DNA of 64,000 nt from Cyanobacteriota bacterium (GCA_046045965.1 JBJOKS010000010.1:32001-96000), one strand, 5' to 3'. Numbered from the stretch's first letter, positions 32,637 to 38,730 are shown. Numbers and translations are program-made. Notes: generated from the letters alone by a model not told the origin.

Positions 32637-33056
32637 TCAAAAAACATATTTTTCAGCTACTTTCCAATAACGGGAAAATCTCTTTAAATCAATAAATCCA
32701 TCATAATCAAAAAACGGTTCAACTGCAAATATCTCTAATTTCAATTTCTTTTCAATCTGATCACAAATATCATCAAATGTGGGACTGGGACTATCAGTAG
32801 TCACAACTAATTTAGCATCATGTTCTTGAGCAAATTTAATAATTTCCTCTGCGACATTTCCTCGACGAATTTCTACAGGTAATTCTAGTAAACATTCGTA
32901 TATAAAAGTTATACGTTTTAAACTTAATTGCCATGCTTCGATTAAAGCATCATCCCAAACCCAAATTGCTGGAGTGTTGGGATATTCTTGTAAAGCTGGG
33001 TTTTGGGGACTTAAACAATCTCCATTAATCCAAATAATTGGTTTAGTCATATTCAT
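32637..33056 (-). CDS. Small protein resembling the N-terminal alpha/beta domain of photolyase/cryptochrome
   Basis: 'IIWINGDCLSPQNPAL..PAIWVWDD..KRITFIYECLLEL..F.RYWK' mirrors the photolyase N-domain pattern; ATG 33056 overlaps the kinase TGA (alternative ATG at 33050). Confidence 0.65.
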   Translation of the reverse strand: MNMTKPIIWINGDCLSPQNPALQEYPNTPAIWVWDDALIEAWQLSLKRITFIYECLLELPVEIRRGNVAEEIIKFAQEHDAKLVVTTDSPSPTFDDICDQIEKKLKLEIFAVEPFFDYDGFIDLKRFSRYWKVAEKYVF

Positions 33057-34396
33057 ATACATCTTAACAAAGCTTCCTTAAATTCTACCGCAGTTGGAAA
33101 ATAAATTTGCGGTTTTTCTGTTAAAGCTAAATCTATCACATCAGCTAACTTTTCAGGAATACTATGATCCCGTTGACGAATCGGGATAGGATGATTATTT
33201 AAAATACTACTCCAAGGATCACCATCAAAATCACGAGGAAATTTTCCTGTTAACATATTATATAAACAAGCTGCACTTGCCCAAACATCAACTTCCGGTA
33301 AAGAATGTTTAAAATCTAATACTTGTTGACGGGGCATAAATACAGGAGTTCCCATTTTTGTACCTGTGAAAGTTTGTCCACTTAAACCAGCTAAATCAAA
33401 AGCTTTAGCTAAACCATAATCTCCGATTTTTACCACCATTTTACCATTAATTTTAGTAATAAAAATATTATTGGGTTTTAAATCTCGATGGACTAAACCT
33501 TTACCTTTTCCTAATCTCCCATCTGCTAATCTCACATAGGGAACTTCGACGTTATGGGCATAATCTAAACCATCGAGAACTTGGAGAATAATATCAACTG
33601 CTATATTAATCGGTAAACTTCCCCCTAATTTTTCCATTAAATCCCAAACATCTCCACCTTCGCAATATTCCATTGCAAAGAAAAAGGTATTTCCTGCAAA
33701 GTCATAATCTAAACATTGGATGACGTTGAGATGTTGTAAACATTTACTATTTTCTATTTCCCTTAAAAACATTTTCACACCCTGCTCTGTAGCTGCAACT
33801 GCGGGTAACATGATTTTCAAAGCTACGAGTTTTTGAGTTTTTTGATGTTGGGCTAAAAATACTTCTCCACAACCACCTTGACCTAATGATTTAATAATTT
33901 GATAATTAGAAATTACTTTGAGATTTTGATTACCTGTGTTTGCTAGGTTGAGGATGTTTTTGATAATATCTAAAAAATTAGGTTTTTGATTTTCTGGGGG
34001 TTGGGGAAGATTGGGAGTTTGTTGTTTTTCAACTTCTGCTTCTACAGCAACATTAAAAATAATATGACCGATTTGCACCTGATCACGATTACCTAAATTA
34101 TATTCAGGAAGGAGATTTTTGGCAGCTTGTTCAGGAGTATCACCCGCTTTTCTTTGACCGATTTTTTTACCATTAACATAAGTTCTGTTTAAACTGCCTA
34201 AATCTCTAATTCTAATTTCTGGGGGGTTGATATCGAATAAGCAGTGATAACGGGAAACTTTCATATCAATATTATCGGCAATTTGTAAATTGCAATCATC
34301 ATTTCTACCGATAATACAAGTGCTGCGGTTATCAAATATATATTGTTTTCCTGATAGTTTCCCTGTGGTAATGGTGAGGGTGACGGTAGGTGGCAT
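33053..34396 (-). CDS. FHA-domain Ser/Thr protein kinase
   Basis: FHA 'IGR..DC..SRYHC..DLGSLN'; kinase 'LGQGGCGEV', 'VALK', 'HRDLKPNN', 'DYG', 'GTPVFM'; start MPPTV at 34396. Confidence 0.92.
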   Translation of the reverse strand: MPPTVTLTITTGKLSGKQYIFDNRSTCIIGRNDDCNLQIADNIDMKVSRYHCLFDINPPEIRIRDLGSLNRTYVNGKKIGQRKAGDTPEQAAKNLLPEYNLGNRDQVQIGHIIFNVAVEAEVEKQQTPNLPQPPENQKPNFLDIIKNILNLANTGNQNLKVISNYQIIKSLGQGGCGEVFLAQHQKTQKLVALKIMLPAVAATEQGVKMFLREIENSKCLQHLNVIQCLDYDFAGNTFFFAMEYCEGGDVWDLMEKLGGSLPINIAVDIILQVLDGLDYAHNVEVPYVRLADGRLGKGKGLVHRDLKPNNIFITKINGKMVVKIGDYGLAKAFDLAGLSGQTFTGTKMGTPVFMPRQQVLDFKHSLPEVDVWASAACLYNMLTGKFPRDFDGDPWSSILNNHPIPIRQRDHSIPEKLADVIDLALTEKPQIYFPTAVEFKEALLRCI

Positions 34397-34442
34397 TTTG
34401 GGAATTGTTGATTTTTTTAGGTTTTGGTAAATATTATACTCT

Positions 34443-34530
34443 GTAGGTTGGGTTAAGTGACAACGCAACCCAACAATCTAAATGATCACATTTGCATCAT
34501 GTTGGGTTTCCTTTCGTCAACCCAACCTAC
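34443..34530. repeat. REP doublet (REPIN-like) of GTAG-type REPs
   Basis: GTAGGTTGGGTT..AACCCAAC and the inverted GTTGGGTT..AACCCAACCTAC; single copy at 53814-53843. Confidence 0.75.
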
Positions 34531-34975: not shown

Positions 34976-35422
34976 TTAGAGTAAAAAATCACTCAAAACT
35001 AAAATCGTTAATTCTGTAACTCGTTTCAACTGAATATCATTAGTTAAGAAAATATCACATTGAGAAAATATAGCTACGGAAATTTGTAAAGAATCTAATA
35101 AAGCTAAATTATATCTAGCTCTTAATTGGGATGCTTGTTTAGCAATTAATTCATCAATTTGTATAAATTCAACATTGACACCAGAAACAATCAAATCAAT
35201 AAAATCCTGTTGTAATTCTGTTAGTCCTAAACGATAGGGATAAACTAGACACTCAGATAATGTGATAGGAGAAGTAACCGCACTTAGTAAACCTGAATCT
35301 ATACCGTGAAAAACATAGTTGACTAAAGACTGATATTGAGGATGATTCTCTACATAATAAATTACTGGTGCTGTATCCAAAAATAATTTTTTACCCTGAA
35401 TTAAATAATCTTCAATGTTCAT
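34976..35422 (-). CDS. vapC: PIN-domain toxin (VapC family)
   Basis: 'LFLDTAPVIY', 'TSPITLSE', 'LALLDSLQ', 'FLTND'. Confidence 0.88.
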   Translation of the reverse strand: MNIEDYLIQGKKLFLDTAPVIYYVENHPQYQSLVNYVFHGIDSGLLSAVTSPITLSECLVYPYRLGLTELQQDFIDLIVSGVNVEFIQIDELIAKQASQLRARYNLALLDSLQISVAIFSQCDIFLTNDIQLKRVTELTILVLSDFLL

Positions 35423-35702
35423 AGATATTTCTGAGATTTAATTCCCTATTTTTACTTTCCTCGTTTCTATTTCTGGAAACCCAATTTTGAGCATCTTCAC
35501 TAACTAAAGGATAAGGTGCTTTACCTCTGATTTCTTGCCATTTTCGAGGTTGTTTTTGTTCTATATCATTTGGTTGTGATTGCAGGGATAATGAATCAAT
35601 AAAAATTAACACTTGTTCTTGTTGTGCAGGTGTTAAATTGTCTAGTTTTTCTAAGATAGTTTTTTTATTTTCCAGTGCTGTAGTCATCATGAAAATCCTC
35701 AT
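35412..35702 (-). CDS. Putative antitoxin of the VapC toxin (start could be at the MM a few codons downstream)
   Basis: Small ORF upstream of and overlapping the PIN gene by 11 nt; 'LTPAQQEQVL.FI', 'EDAQNWVSRNR.E'. Confidence 0.75.
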   Translation of the reverse strand: MRIFMMTTALENKKTILEKLDNLTPAQQEQVLIFIDSLSLQSQPNDIEQKQPRKWQEIRGKAPYPLVSEDAQNWVSRNRNEESKNRELNLRNIYEH

Positions 35703-35826
35703 TATCTGTAAAATACGATCTTCTTTAATTATATGGCTATCGGCTTTTATTTGTAAAGATTTCTAGGATTTGAGGATGTACAGGATGTTATTGAATGATT
35801 ATTTTTTGGAAGTTGGGGATTTTTTT

Positions 35827-35999
35827 TGTCTGAATCAGGATGTCCAGGATTTGAGGATGTACAGGATGTTATTGGATGATTGTTTTTTGGAAGTTGGGGA
35901 TTTTTCAGGATGTTATTGAATGATTGTTTTTGAATTATTTAAAACATCTAAAAATTACCATCCTGTAAATCCTTTAATCCTGGTTATCCTGATTCTGAC
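35827..35999. mobile_element. MITE-like element with ~40 bp TIRs built from AGGAT-periodic units
   Basis: TGTCTGAATCAGGATGTCCAGGATTTGAGGATGTACAGGAT ... ATCCTGTAAATCCTTTAATCCTGGTTATCCTGATTCTGAC. Confidence 0.65.
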
Positions 36000-36033
36000 T
36001 TAATAATTTTCTGTAACCCTTAAATGTTACAGT

Positions 36034-37530
36034 TTACAAGTCTCGACGCGAGACAAGAGACCAGTACATCTTCGCCACAACAAGAAAGACATCCCGACTC
36101 AAAACCCCAACAACCAGCGGAACAGGGAGGTGGCCTTCTGGTGCTTTTATATCAAAAGTAATATTTTTGTAGTACAACCTTTCTCCTCCTTTTCTCCATC
36201 CTACCTTGTCCCCAAACTTCTGCCAGATGTCTGAGTTATATTCTCTAGTTCCACCCAAACCCTGATAAATTCGTTTCTGAACAGAAAAACCAAACTTACC
36301 ATCACTATATTTTACCCATAACTGGTCAATGGTGCGGAGGTCTGCACAGGGAAAATTATCAATGTGTTTAGAATATAACCAACCTTCCTCTTCTCTTTTC
36401 GCAACTGCTAACATTACTCTTCTAGTTTCTTCATCTGCTTCTTTCCATTTTCCTGCTTTGAGGTAGTTTTGCAGTTTTCTATAGTCCATTCCCACATCTG
36501 ATTTTAATTCTATCTCTTGGTTTTCTTCATTGATAACTTCCACATCATCTTCATAGAATTCTTCTTCTAAATAACTAATATCATCATCTTCATTAAGGCT
36601 ATCGAAGGATGATGAACCAAAAGCAGATTTAAATGCATCTAAATCAAAATTATCATCATAATCTTCCTTTTCTTGGTTATTGGTTGTAAGTAAACCCAAC
36701 AACTCCCGAAACTCCCGTACAGTTTGCGGACGGTTTTGGGGTTCTAACTCCATACCTTTGAGAATAGCAGCATTTACCTTATCGCTAATATTCTGATTAT
36801 ATTTTTGCGGTGGTTGTAAAATCACATCATCTTCAGCGCGATAATTAGCAGGAATGGGAACTCTCAGAGTTAACAAAGTGTACAACGTCGCAGCTAAAGC
36901 ATAAACATCAGTATAATAACCAAAATCTCCCCGTCGTTCATACTGTTCTATGGGTGCATAACCTTCCGTTTTACTCGCAGTCATGCTTTTAATTTTTCCC
37001 GGTTGAAACTCTCGCGCTAACCCAAAATCAATTAATACCGCTTCCTTGGTTTTCTGTCGTAGTAAAATATTATTGGGTTTCACATCCCGGTGTAAAAGTC
37101 CTCGTTCATGAACCACTTCTAACGCTTGTCCGATTTGGTCAATGTAACTCAATGCTTCCGTTTCTGACAAGTACCCATTTTCCGCTGTATATTCTTCTGT
37201 ATATTTTTCTAAATCATCCCCTTCTATATATTCCATGACTATAGCGTGCAGTTTATATTTATCAATATCTTCCTCAAAGTTCGTGTAAACCTTGACTATG
37301 TGGGGATGTTCACATTTAGCTAATGATTTTGCTTCTGCTTTAAACCTATTTTGTCTTTCTTCAAAGTCTGGTTTTTCTCGTTGTTCGCGGTTGAGAGTTT
37401 TAATAACTACGAGTCTATCAAGTCCTGTATCTTCTGCAAGATAGGTTTCACCAAAGCCACCCCCACCGATGACTTTTTTAATGATATACTGTCCGTTCTG
37501 TAGACTGGTGTTAGGTGTCCAAACTTGCAT
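36034..37530 (-). CDS. Ser/Thr protein kinase with C-terminal GUN4-like domain
   Basis: 'IGGGGFGETY', 'VVIK', 'HRDVKPNN', 'DFGLAR', 'GYAPIEQY'; GUN4 'DYRKLQ.YL..GKWKEADEET', 'FPCADLRTIDQLW..S.GKFGFSVQ', 'APEGHLP'. Confidence 0.93.
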   Translation of the reverse strand: MQVWTPNTSLQNGQYIIKKVIGGGGFGETYLAEDTGLDRLVVIKTLNREQREKPDFEERQNRFKAEAKSLAKCEHPHIVKVYTNFEEDIDKYKLHAIVMEYIEGDDLEKYTEEYTAENGYLSETEALSYIDQIGQALEVVHERGLLHRDVKPNNILLRQKTKEAVLIDFGLAREFQPGKIKSMTASKTEGYAPIEQYERRGDFGYYTDVYALAATLYTLLTLRVPIPANYRAEDDVILQPPQKYNQNISDKVNAAILKGMELEPQNRPQTVREFRELLGLLTTNNQEKEDYDDNFDLDAFKSAFGSSSFDSLNEDDDISYLEEEFYEDDVEVINEENQEIELKSDVGMDYRKLQNYLKAGKWKEADEETRRVMLAVAKREEEGWLYSKHIDNFPCADLRTIDQLWVKYSDGKFGFSVQKRIYQGLGGTREYNSDIWQKFGDKVGWRKGGERLYYKNITFDIKAPEGHLPVPLVVGVLSRDVFLVVAKMYWSLVSRRDL

Positions 37531-37612: not shown

Positions 37613-37881
37613 TGTCTGAATCAGGATAACCAGGATTATAGGATTTTCAGGATGTGATTGATAATTGGTGGTGGGGATTTTTTGATGTGGGTGAAAATAA
37701 CGATGTTGGAAGTTTAAAACCCTATATATATGCGCCCACAGATTCCCACTCATAACATAAGTGTAAAATATTATTTTCGCCTTGTCAAGTCTTAACATAA
37801 CAAAAATATGAAAATACAAAACTTCAGATGGCAACTTACCATCCTGTAAATCCTAAAATCCTGGACATCCTGATTCAAACA
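37613..37881. mobile_element. MITE-like element, same TIR family (269 bp)
   Basis: TGTCTGAATCAGGAT... at 37613; ...ATCCTGATTCAAACA ending 37881. Confidence 0.65.
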
Positions 37882-37890
37882 AATTAAATT

Positions 37891-38730
37891 CTACCTTCCT
37901 TTTTTCCCCTTTTGCCAACTTTGACTATTAGGTTTTTTACTAAACTCACCGTTCGGAAAAAGTCGCGCTTCTAACTCCTCATAACTCCCCTCAAAATCAC
38001 ACTTACCATAAAGCGGACATTGACAACAATAAACCCCTTTTGTGTAACGTTCTAAATTTTCCCGATTGAAAAAATAAGGTTTATGACTAAAGGTACTCGC
38101 TACCCATTGCCATGACATATTATTACTTGCAGGATCGCCATCTAACAAATGTTGTAAAAACCATTTTGCGCCGGCTTGCCATTGAATACGTCGCCAATGG
38201 ATAATATAAGCCGCTAACCACATTCTAATATGGTTATGTAAATAGCCATTTTCTCGTAATTCCTGACTAAAACTATCAATACAAACCAGTCCGGTTTTAC
38301 CTTCCGTAATATCTGACGGTAAATTTTTTGCATAGTCTGCTATTTTATAACCGGTTTTGTATTCTTCTTGATTTTCCCAAATACCTTTTCCTAATTTAAT
38401 ATATAGCCTTTGCCAATAATCACGCCATCCTAATTCATTAATTAATTTACTCGCATCCTCTGGATTTTTCACCCGCTCTAAAATATCATCTTTAATTTCT
38501 CGTAAACTTAAAACGCCATGACGAATATAAGGTGATAACCTAGTAACAGCACCAGTTAAAGAATTGCGTGTTTTTGCGTAGGCAAGAGGATCGACATTTT
38601 TCAGCTTTGCTTTTGCTGCTTTCCTTCCTCCTACAGTTTCGCTGATGTGATCATCTCGTTCTGCGGCCTGGGGAAATTGTTCGCGCAGGTAAGCTATTAA
38701 CTCATCTCTGTTAGTGAAATCACGTAACAT
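37891..38730 (-). CDS. Photolyase/cryptochrome FAD-binding-domain protein lacking the N-terminal domain
   Basis: 'TRLSPYIRHG', 'ELGWRDYW', 'GYLHNHIRMW', 'LLDGDPASNNMSWQW'; Cys-rich 'YCCQCPLYGKC' near the C-terminus. Confidence 0.88.
   Translation of the reverse strand: MLRDFTNRDELIAYLREQFPQAAERDDHISETVGGRKAAKAKLKNVDPLAYAKTRNSLTGAVTRLSPYIRHGVLSLREIKDDILERVKNPEDASKLINELGWRDYWQRLYIKLGKGIWENQEEYKTGYKIADYAKNLPSDITEGKTGLVCIDSFSQELRENGYLHNHIRMWLAAYIIHWRRIQWQAGAKWFLQHLLDGDPASNNMSWQWVASTFSHKPYFFNRENLERYTKGVYCCQCPLYGKCDFEGSYEELEARLFPNGEFSKKPNSQSWQKGKKGR

Follow-up and report, generated by a model that had tools for sequence, protein, structure and literature searches.

The 3' end of a kinase-GUN4 gene in a 64,000-nt stretch of Cyanobacteriota DNA (GCA_046045965.1 JBJOKS010000010.1:32001-96000; the whole stretch analysed is termed the window herein) raises the question of how a short coding segment unlike the rest of its gene came to be written there. 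A first-pass annotation proposed that this segment is rewritten, as a remote target, by a DGR-like or other localised mutagenesis. Comparisons among paralogs support rewriting that is confined to the GUN4 C-terminus, generates indels, and takes place between common nucleotide anchors, and the window gene does behave as a remote target, i.e., as an orphan member of its family without an adjoining enzyme. The features involved are listed in Table 1.

Table 1. Features at and around the 3' end of the kinase-GUN4 gene (window coordinates)
Feature	Coordinates	Strand
Ser/Thr kinase-GUN4 gene, 498 aa, target gene without adjoining transposase	36034..37530	-
Protein kinase domain, Pkinase residues 15-269	36724..37488	-
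GUN4 domain (residues 344-470) as far as GHLP; GUN4 fold, predicted with pLDDT >90	36121..36501	-
5' anchor encoding APEGHLP	36124..36144	-
Variable core, 63 nt, 78% G+T, no donor found	36061..36123	-
3' anchor closing all three frames: SLVSRRDL-stop, LLSRVETCKL-stop, SCLASRLVNCNI-stop	36020..36060	-
Hairpin 1, 6 bp in window	36040..36054	.
Hairpin 2, 7 bp in window	36011..36032	.
Proximal half of the cis element (about 124 nt in full), retained; distal half with motif (GTGCCAGGTA) missing	35998..36060	-
Dispersed-repeat copy truncating the element	35959..35999	-

Recomputing the base content of the core reproduced the first-pass values (G24, T25, C8, A6 at 36123-36061; 78% G+T and 51% G+C) in a gene that is 35% A. 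Outside the core, no 63-nt window of the gene goes above 68% G+T, and only 0.08% of genomic 63-nt windows reach 49 G+T on a given strand. It had also been remarked that no codon in the core ends in A, which is true of this core but is no signal, the chance probability being about 0.08 with 6 A in 63 nt; in pooled cores, A makes up 16-19% at each of the three codon positions. For 73 segments drawn from the own genome and from retrieved loci, of which 2 run across a second anchor, the base mix of the cores is G.38, T.33, A.17, and C.12, equal at all three codon positions; the bias thus acts at the nucleotide level.

The boundaries of the variable segment are sharp. Across 87 segments, conservation drops abruptly after the Pro codon and returns about 7 nt ahead of the TCTCG block, and alignment of paralogs yields, as foreseen, fixed nucleotide anchors flanking a length-variable core, with unalignable cores ranging from 22 to >120 nt. 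The own genome, G000 (92% complete), contains 14 GUN4 matches, most of which have both nucleotide anchors in common, carry unrelated cores, and between them use all three exits. In this genome the anchors were found only on GUN4 genes and on one gene-less fragment (L053:1867-2050, on G000:C9), an isolated GUN4 3' end that retains the two anchors around an open core and lies outside any full GUN4 gene. The canonical GUN4 gene of the genome sits apart from the window gene, at G000:C8. An 803-aa kinase (L054:404-2815, on G000:C86) carries three GUN4 repeats with one core each, and its inner anchors are read through with no stop.

Termination within the 3' anchor had been described for the gene frame and the +1 frame; both do stop, and the description is completed by the +2 frame, which also ends there (Table 1). 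Paralogs enter all three frames (29/25/19 of 73), and 63/87 anchors close every frame within 6-18 codons. No frameshift has damaged the gene, its ..SRRDL ending being one of three normal exits. Stop triplets number 9 in frame vs 181 in the other two frames of the cores, and about 64% of random cores of the observed composition would stop early; in-frame stops are under strong counter-selection. As an explanation for the G/T bias itself, stop avoidance was rejected, since the simulated stop rate is 0.64 vs 0.59 for uniform composition, i.e., of no benefit.

Both hairpins noted in the first-pass annotation lie where it placed them and fold (z = -3.7; equally stable in 1/200 shuffles), yet they are largely specific to the window. 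All five inner pairs of hairpin 1 are kept in 40/87 segments and its sixth in 4/87, while the seven pairs of hairpin 2 are all kept in 4/87, with almost no compensatory pairs in either across these 87 segments. On these pair counts, the hairpins are unlikely to be the conserved signal.

At the protein level, the modelled window GUN4 domain adopts a GUN4 fold (TM-score about 0.8); the model has high confidence up to GHLP, is weak across the first half of the core, and runs a C-terminal helix across core and anchor. The core starts after the position that aligns with Pro208 in the GUN4 of Synechocystis, such that Leu209-Arg217 of that protein are replaced. The available text of PMC1084334 describes Arg214 as essential for porphyrin binding; the conserved Arg214 segment that follows GHLP in canonical GUN4 is absent from the window gene, with the core in its stead. 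By alignment, the core thus takes the place of the porphyrin-binding segment of GUN4, with the kinase domain as the likely output domain. A second short variable patch was observed in L186 (G089:C1), in the GUN4 loop before GDRVGW and about 100 nt upstream of the core, where it differs between otherwise identical cassettes.

The surroundings of the window gene include an FHA-kinase gene (33053-34468) and a PIN-domain gene with a small upstream ORF (34976-35702), likely a toxin-antitoxin pair. A lone photolyase FAD-binding domain (37891-38730) and, 5 kb off, a weak photolyase N-terminal match (32637-33062) may represent a split photolyase-like pair.

Core replacement is all or nothing. In 30 close pairs, whose two flanks are each at least 80% identical, cores were at shuffle level in 27 and kept in 3, the latter having damaged anchors by inspection. 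Two tandem cassettes in G089 carry unrelated cores despite only 4 differences over about 900 aligned columns of enzyme and element. Likewise, the window gene and its relative at G003:C59 have kinase sequences 96-99% identical in aligned blocks and the same anchors, with the core replaced; swapping extends to the kinase-GUN4 linker. Separately, cores are conserved between genomes in the lineages L038, L039, and L049; G000:C35, L042, and L043; and L103 and L149. The 3' anchors of these lineages are decayed or deleted, as though the cores had been frozen.

On contig C1 of G000, a 251-aa Y1 transposase, present in a single copy (G000:C1:172559-173314), is encoded convergently with a caspase-GUN4 gene. 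Its recurrence was examined at 81 enzyme loci, i.e., the own copy and the best 80 of 447 relatives from species genomes: a convergent GUN4 gene lies within 700 nt at 68/77 Y1 loci having at least 700 nt of downstream room, and neither a recurrent third gene nor a recurrently linked polymerase was found among the 81. Control regions around other Y1 proteins had such a target in 0/20 cases and the motif described below in 0/18 of those giving a match. At L096, where both enzyme and motif are present, the facing gene is protease-like, has a Pro-rich tail, and gave no match to GUN4.

Several lines of evidence bear on the identity of this enzyme. A model of the close homologue L063 has E. coli TnpA-REP (4ER8) as its best fold match (E 3.8e-8), with no match to the enzyme in a PDB sequence search; against NF047646 (RAYT/TnpA-REP) the enzyme scores 72.3 bits, hence below the curated cut-off of 80. 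It has NHVH, WE, and YIxxNP motifs, a length of about 250 aa, a C-terminal extension, and a low copy number. On these grounds the linked enzyme is classed as a Y1/HUH (RAYT-like) transposase. An IS200/IS605 insertion sequence was rejected given the single copy in G000, the lack of a recurrent third gene at the 81 loci, and a score of 23 bits vs 55 for NF033573. Over 119 full-length copies, H60 and H62 are conserved at 100% and Y122 at 99%, and the enzyme is predicted to be catalytically intact across its clade. GQxxL[PW]-like residues occur in 103/119 of these copies, the conserved QxxL[PW] motif presumably being akin to a sliding-clamp-binding motif. Viral contigs contained no enzyme and phage records gave one weak 26% match; four near full-length cyanobacterial copies are on plasmids, and the one examined faces GUN4.

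The DNA between core and enzyme is nearly fixed in length and ends in an invariant 10-nt motif, GTGCCAGGTA (transposase strand), which is present at 102/119 loci. Motif and core are separated by 124 nt in 48/63 cases and by 125 nt in 8/63. The enzyme ORF reads the motif in frame 0 at 33 loci and in frame 2 at 18, while at 51 it falls after the stop, from which we conclude that its conservation is at the DNA level; a coding role for the element was discarded for the same reason. The element is not a known RNA either, the only matches being a neighbouring tRNA and a weak overlapping match in L052, and when 12 elements were folded as DNA, hairpin 1 was the only structure they had in common. Premature stops occur in 5/63 motif-bearing copies vs 0/24 motif-less ones.

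GUN4 is not the only partner. In a quick tree, the enzyme clade (119 rows, SH-aLRT 99) also contains enzymes facing Nif11-leader precursors (TIGR03798), cyanobactin genes (anacyclamide/piricyclamide precursors, TIGR04446), and barrel-type genes, the last encoding proteins of about 330 aa with a variable tail after DVRVHD. The barrel-type genes have no Pfam or NCBIfam match, and their resemblance to inverse-autotransporter barrels is offered as a lead only; up to nine copies were seen per small genome (L168, L169, L175-L182, L184), with tails often containing Cys. Of the enzyme matches with room, in a count that retains fragments and overlapping loci, 115 divide into 96 facing GUN4 genes, 3 facing cyanobactin genes, and 16 with none, and the 55 of the picocyanobacterial branch into 14 facing Nif11 genes, 17 facing barrel genes, and 24 with none. 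The cyanobactin-facing branch is nested among GUN4-facing enzymes (support 100). Most of the cyanobactin cassettes L158, L161, L163, and L165 have a 10-nt motif of their own, which lies 153-162 nt beyond the core in the downstream direction.

The conserved motif, its fixed spacing, the convergent pairing, and the all-or-nothing cores together lead us to propose the Y1 enzyme as the likely agent of the rewriting, and we infer that it acts on GUN4 tails. We consider it probable that the Y1/HUH transposase facing GUN4 genes cuts the gene end, and that the segment after GHLP is rebuilt at any length, mostly G/T-rich and probably without a template. The enzyme would bind the element while it is single-stranded, the replication fork being the probable place, and would nick at the core. 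As with TnpA-REP enzymes, the nick would leave a free 3'-OH and a 5'-phosphotyrosine; the available text of PMC8266576 describes TnpA-REP as cleaving single-stranded DNA and transferring strands. A host polymerase would then extend or fill the end with little or no template, sometimes slipping back and re-copying an anchor, before strand transfer reseals the site. Selection would retain open-frame products, giving new ligand-sensing loops to kinases, caspases, and proteases, and frequent loss or breakage of the transposase would leave a tail slowed or frozen. Traces in the cores fit synthesis at a broken end with slippage: cores of some relatives contain re-copied pieces of the 5' anchor, 9/87 repeat at least 9 nt of upstream flank in direct orientation (0.27 expected), 6 of these 9 repeats end exactly at the junction, and 3/87 cores repeat the 3' anchor.

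A first alternative, which we regard as unlikely, is that the same Y1 enzyme builds the new tail by splicing in short pieces of existing single-stranded DNA, of foreign or genomic origin, and that template-free synthesis plays no part. HUH strand transfer can join any 3'-OH oligonucleotide to the cleaved strand, according to the available text of PMC8266576, and the composition of the cores leaves this explanation some room. Over 68 cores, G+T ranges from 0.33 to 0.97, with about a fifth near-ordinary (<0.6), and other target classes show little bias (barrel-gene tails 0.50, n=13, post-stop sequence included; cyanobactin cores 0.58, n=4); given this spread, G/T-biased synthesis is not general. 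Against capture, several cores exceed 90% G+T with homopolymer runs, and no dinucleotide of the kind of CT, CA, or TG is enriched. The cores show no dinucleotide signature of repeated cut-and-join. Donors were also sought. For 9/10 own cores, the longest match in the own genome is at shuffle level, the exception being one C86 core with an 18-nt match longer than in all 100 shuffles. The best own-genome match of the window core is 17 nt of unrelated DNA on C20, equalled in length in 4/100 shuffles; this core had no match in phages and plasmids, and one marginal 25-nt match in 200 family genomes. Cyanophages being thinly covered, a foreign donor may have gone unseen.

Equally improbable in our estimation is that there is no dedicated rewriting, i.e., that a weakly constrained loop drifts by slippage and paralog recombination, with the Y1 enzyme a hitch-hiker supplying the three-frame terminator. 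Such drift would account for the many anchor-bearing genomes without enzyme, the commonness of enzyme fragments, the swapped kinase-GUN4 linker, and the occurrence of the window core on different GUN4 backgrounds in two sequencing runs (see below). It would, however, be expected to leave graded divergence, whereas a core is retained or else resembles its counterpart no more than a shuffle does, and cores are unrelated even in cassettes 4 differences apart over about 900 nt. Recombination, moreover, requires donors, and none were found. Nor would a hitch-hiker be expected to be single-copy in G000, catalytically intact over 119 copies, and facing the variable ends of four unrelated gene families.

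The DGR named in the first-pass annotation fared worse. G000 (92% complete) has no DGR-type RT and no Avd (NF033474, 0 matches); its single RVT_1 match is a retron-like RT on another contig (L001:1297-2430, on G000:C75), which is followed by a 335-aa ORF of no known family and has Retron_TIR and Ec67 as its best NCBIfam matches, under cut-off. This RT was rejected as the writer, since its contig lacks an anchor and it does not recur near the enzyme; nor is any RT a recurrent gene across the 81 enzyme neighbourhoods. The gene-less G000:C9 fragment with both anchors is no template (maximum z 1.9), and no A-to-N template exists among 11 cores (best z = 3.1, between two near paralogs; window core 0.9). 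Abi-type polymerases, considered as a source of A/C-rich DNA, are unsupported by the available text of PMC9508834, and no such RT was found. A remote target of a DGR or other RT system would suit the 3' position, A-poor core, nearby stem-loops, and kinase fusion, but core lengths of 22 to >120 nt in three frames, depletion of C as much as A, a GUN4 target fold, and the missing RT, Avd, and template leave this explanation largely refuted and highly improbable.

Returning to transposase-mediated rewriting, the window gene itself is an orphan, without motif or adjacent enzyme. From TCTCG onward it keeps 56 nt of the element, followed by a dispersed repeat of about 41-48 nt that has 150 genome copies at up to 6 mismatches. 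Repeats of this type flank the gene in inverted pairs (35746-36006 and 37613-37890), in a REPIN-like layout. Eight copies in the genus have the same element cut and different cores; they fall within a 20-row clade (support 99) together with enzyme-linked L115 and L134, and form two subgroups. This implies either that rewriting continued after motif loss, in trans or by import, or that the repeat hit the site repeatedly. The window core would probably have been written in trans by the G000:C1 transposase or imported by recombination, and may be stable now.

Identity of the core in close strains had been named as grounds for abandoning the rewriting proposal; this applies in part, the core recurring in contigs of three other studies. 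Contigs were compared from 4/24 listed runs (X1, X3, X4, and X5), X1 possibly being the window's own sample. A contig from X3, another study, has a core identical to that of the window. Contigs from X4 and X5, two further studies, span the core with the listed differences outside it (12 differences are not listed), and there the window core sits on a different GUN4 background, pointing to recombination. Runs X1, X3, and X4 also yielded contigs in which these anchors enclose a different core, either an allele or a paralog. In those populations, then, no churning of the locus is visible, and rewriting there appears to be episodic or to have stopped.

More broadly, the anchor pattern occurs in 63/301 genomes of the phylum (reversed control 0), and the enzyme clade, fragments included, in 41/301 (matches of at least 45% identity). 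The clade is represented in 30 of the 63 anchor-bearing genomes, with no match in 33. The congeners G001-G003 have enzyme fragments only (G003 being 80% complete). Enzyme loss is common.

Mechanisms that diversify a single region of a bacterial gene are few, and to our knowledge every established one depends on a stored donor or else does not write new sequence of variable length. As a wider and more tentative proposal, to which we give somewhat less than even chances, a domesticated HUH transposase and a portable element would act as a CDR3-like diversifier that rewrites the end of the facing gene template-free, building repertoires of GUN4 sensors for immune-type kinase, caspase, and protease signalling, and also generating hypervariable prochlorosin and cyanobactin cores. 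If so, one gene and a 124-nt element would constitute a two-part, RT-free diversifier, the origin of the hypervariable prochlorosin and cyanobactin cores would become directly testable, and many cyanobacterial GUN4 fusions would be recast as variable receptors, not porphyrin sensors.

Parts of this picture have precedents. GUN4 fused to kinases, caspases, and proteases has been presented as a presumed sensor in conflict systems (PMC7159879, PMC8195603); the available text of these sources treats it as a tetrapyrrole sensor, with no variable tail or transposase mentioned there. A transposase beside sphE or artE is mentioned without comment in the available portions of PMC6162287 and PMC4663559. 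The literature searched, mostly outside subscription journals, yielded no paper that links GUN4 tails to a transposase. With respect to the enzyme, members of TnpA-Y1 subclass 2.1 / RAYT group 1 are described with the same motifs, length, C-terminal extension, low copy number, and TnpA-REP fold in the available text of PMC6006769 and PMC5581495; subclass 2.1 is reported without REPs (PMC6006769) and, in those texts, has no function on record, whereas the enzyme clade here has a fixed partner gene and a cis element.

Cyanobacterial DGRs, in the available text of PMC7517822, are alike in that variation is localised at the 3' end of a domain that binds ligands and is fused to kinases or caspases, and in having remote targets. 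They differ in that DGRs make A-to-N substitutions, while the GUN4 system replaces a whole segment, with changes of length and frame and no RT, Avd, or template. DGR target folds are C-type lectin or Ig, as opposed to the GUN4 fold here; GUN4 is the varied domain in our system, whereas the same text lists it only among other DGR-target domains.

The closest relatives are the facing procA/tnpA-REP pairs of marine picocyanobacteria described by Laurenceau et al. (bioRxiv 10.1101/2020.03.09.984088), who considered the association unique to picocyanobacterial lanthipeptides and, in an added authors' note, saw no strong evidence for causality. Those pairs share with the GUN4 pairs the same enzyme clade, a tail-to-tail arrangement, conserved spacing and intergenic DNA, C-terminal enzyme fragments by targets, an indel-rich variable 3' segment, and the same proposed role. 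Their target is a lanthipeptide precursor, as opposed to the kinase-GUN4 of the window, and the preprint's main text has neither the common 10-nt motif nor the 3' anchor that closes three frames, nor does it report cores biased to G/T or re-copying of anchors. The features of a facing pair are found in the GUN4 family and at G000:C1, with the window copy lacking enzyme and motif. The GUN4 form is thus a variant of a proposed, unproven procA-type pairing, and would be categorically new if template-free writing holds. The same clade, motif, and geometry at four unrelated variable gene ends provide independent support that the procA preprint lacked.

Junctional (CDR3) diversification in V(D)J recombination is carried out by RAG and TdT. 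Should our preferred explanation, template-free rebuilding after transposase cleavage, be correct, the two systems would be alike in relying on a domesticated transposase that cuts at fixed signals, and in turning a length-variable, apparently template-free junction into the binding loop. They would differ in that the cyanobacterial enzyme is an unrelated, single-strand HUH enzyme, no gene segments are involved, the outcome is heritable, and a three-frame terminator rescues the reading frame.
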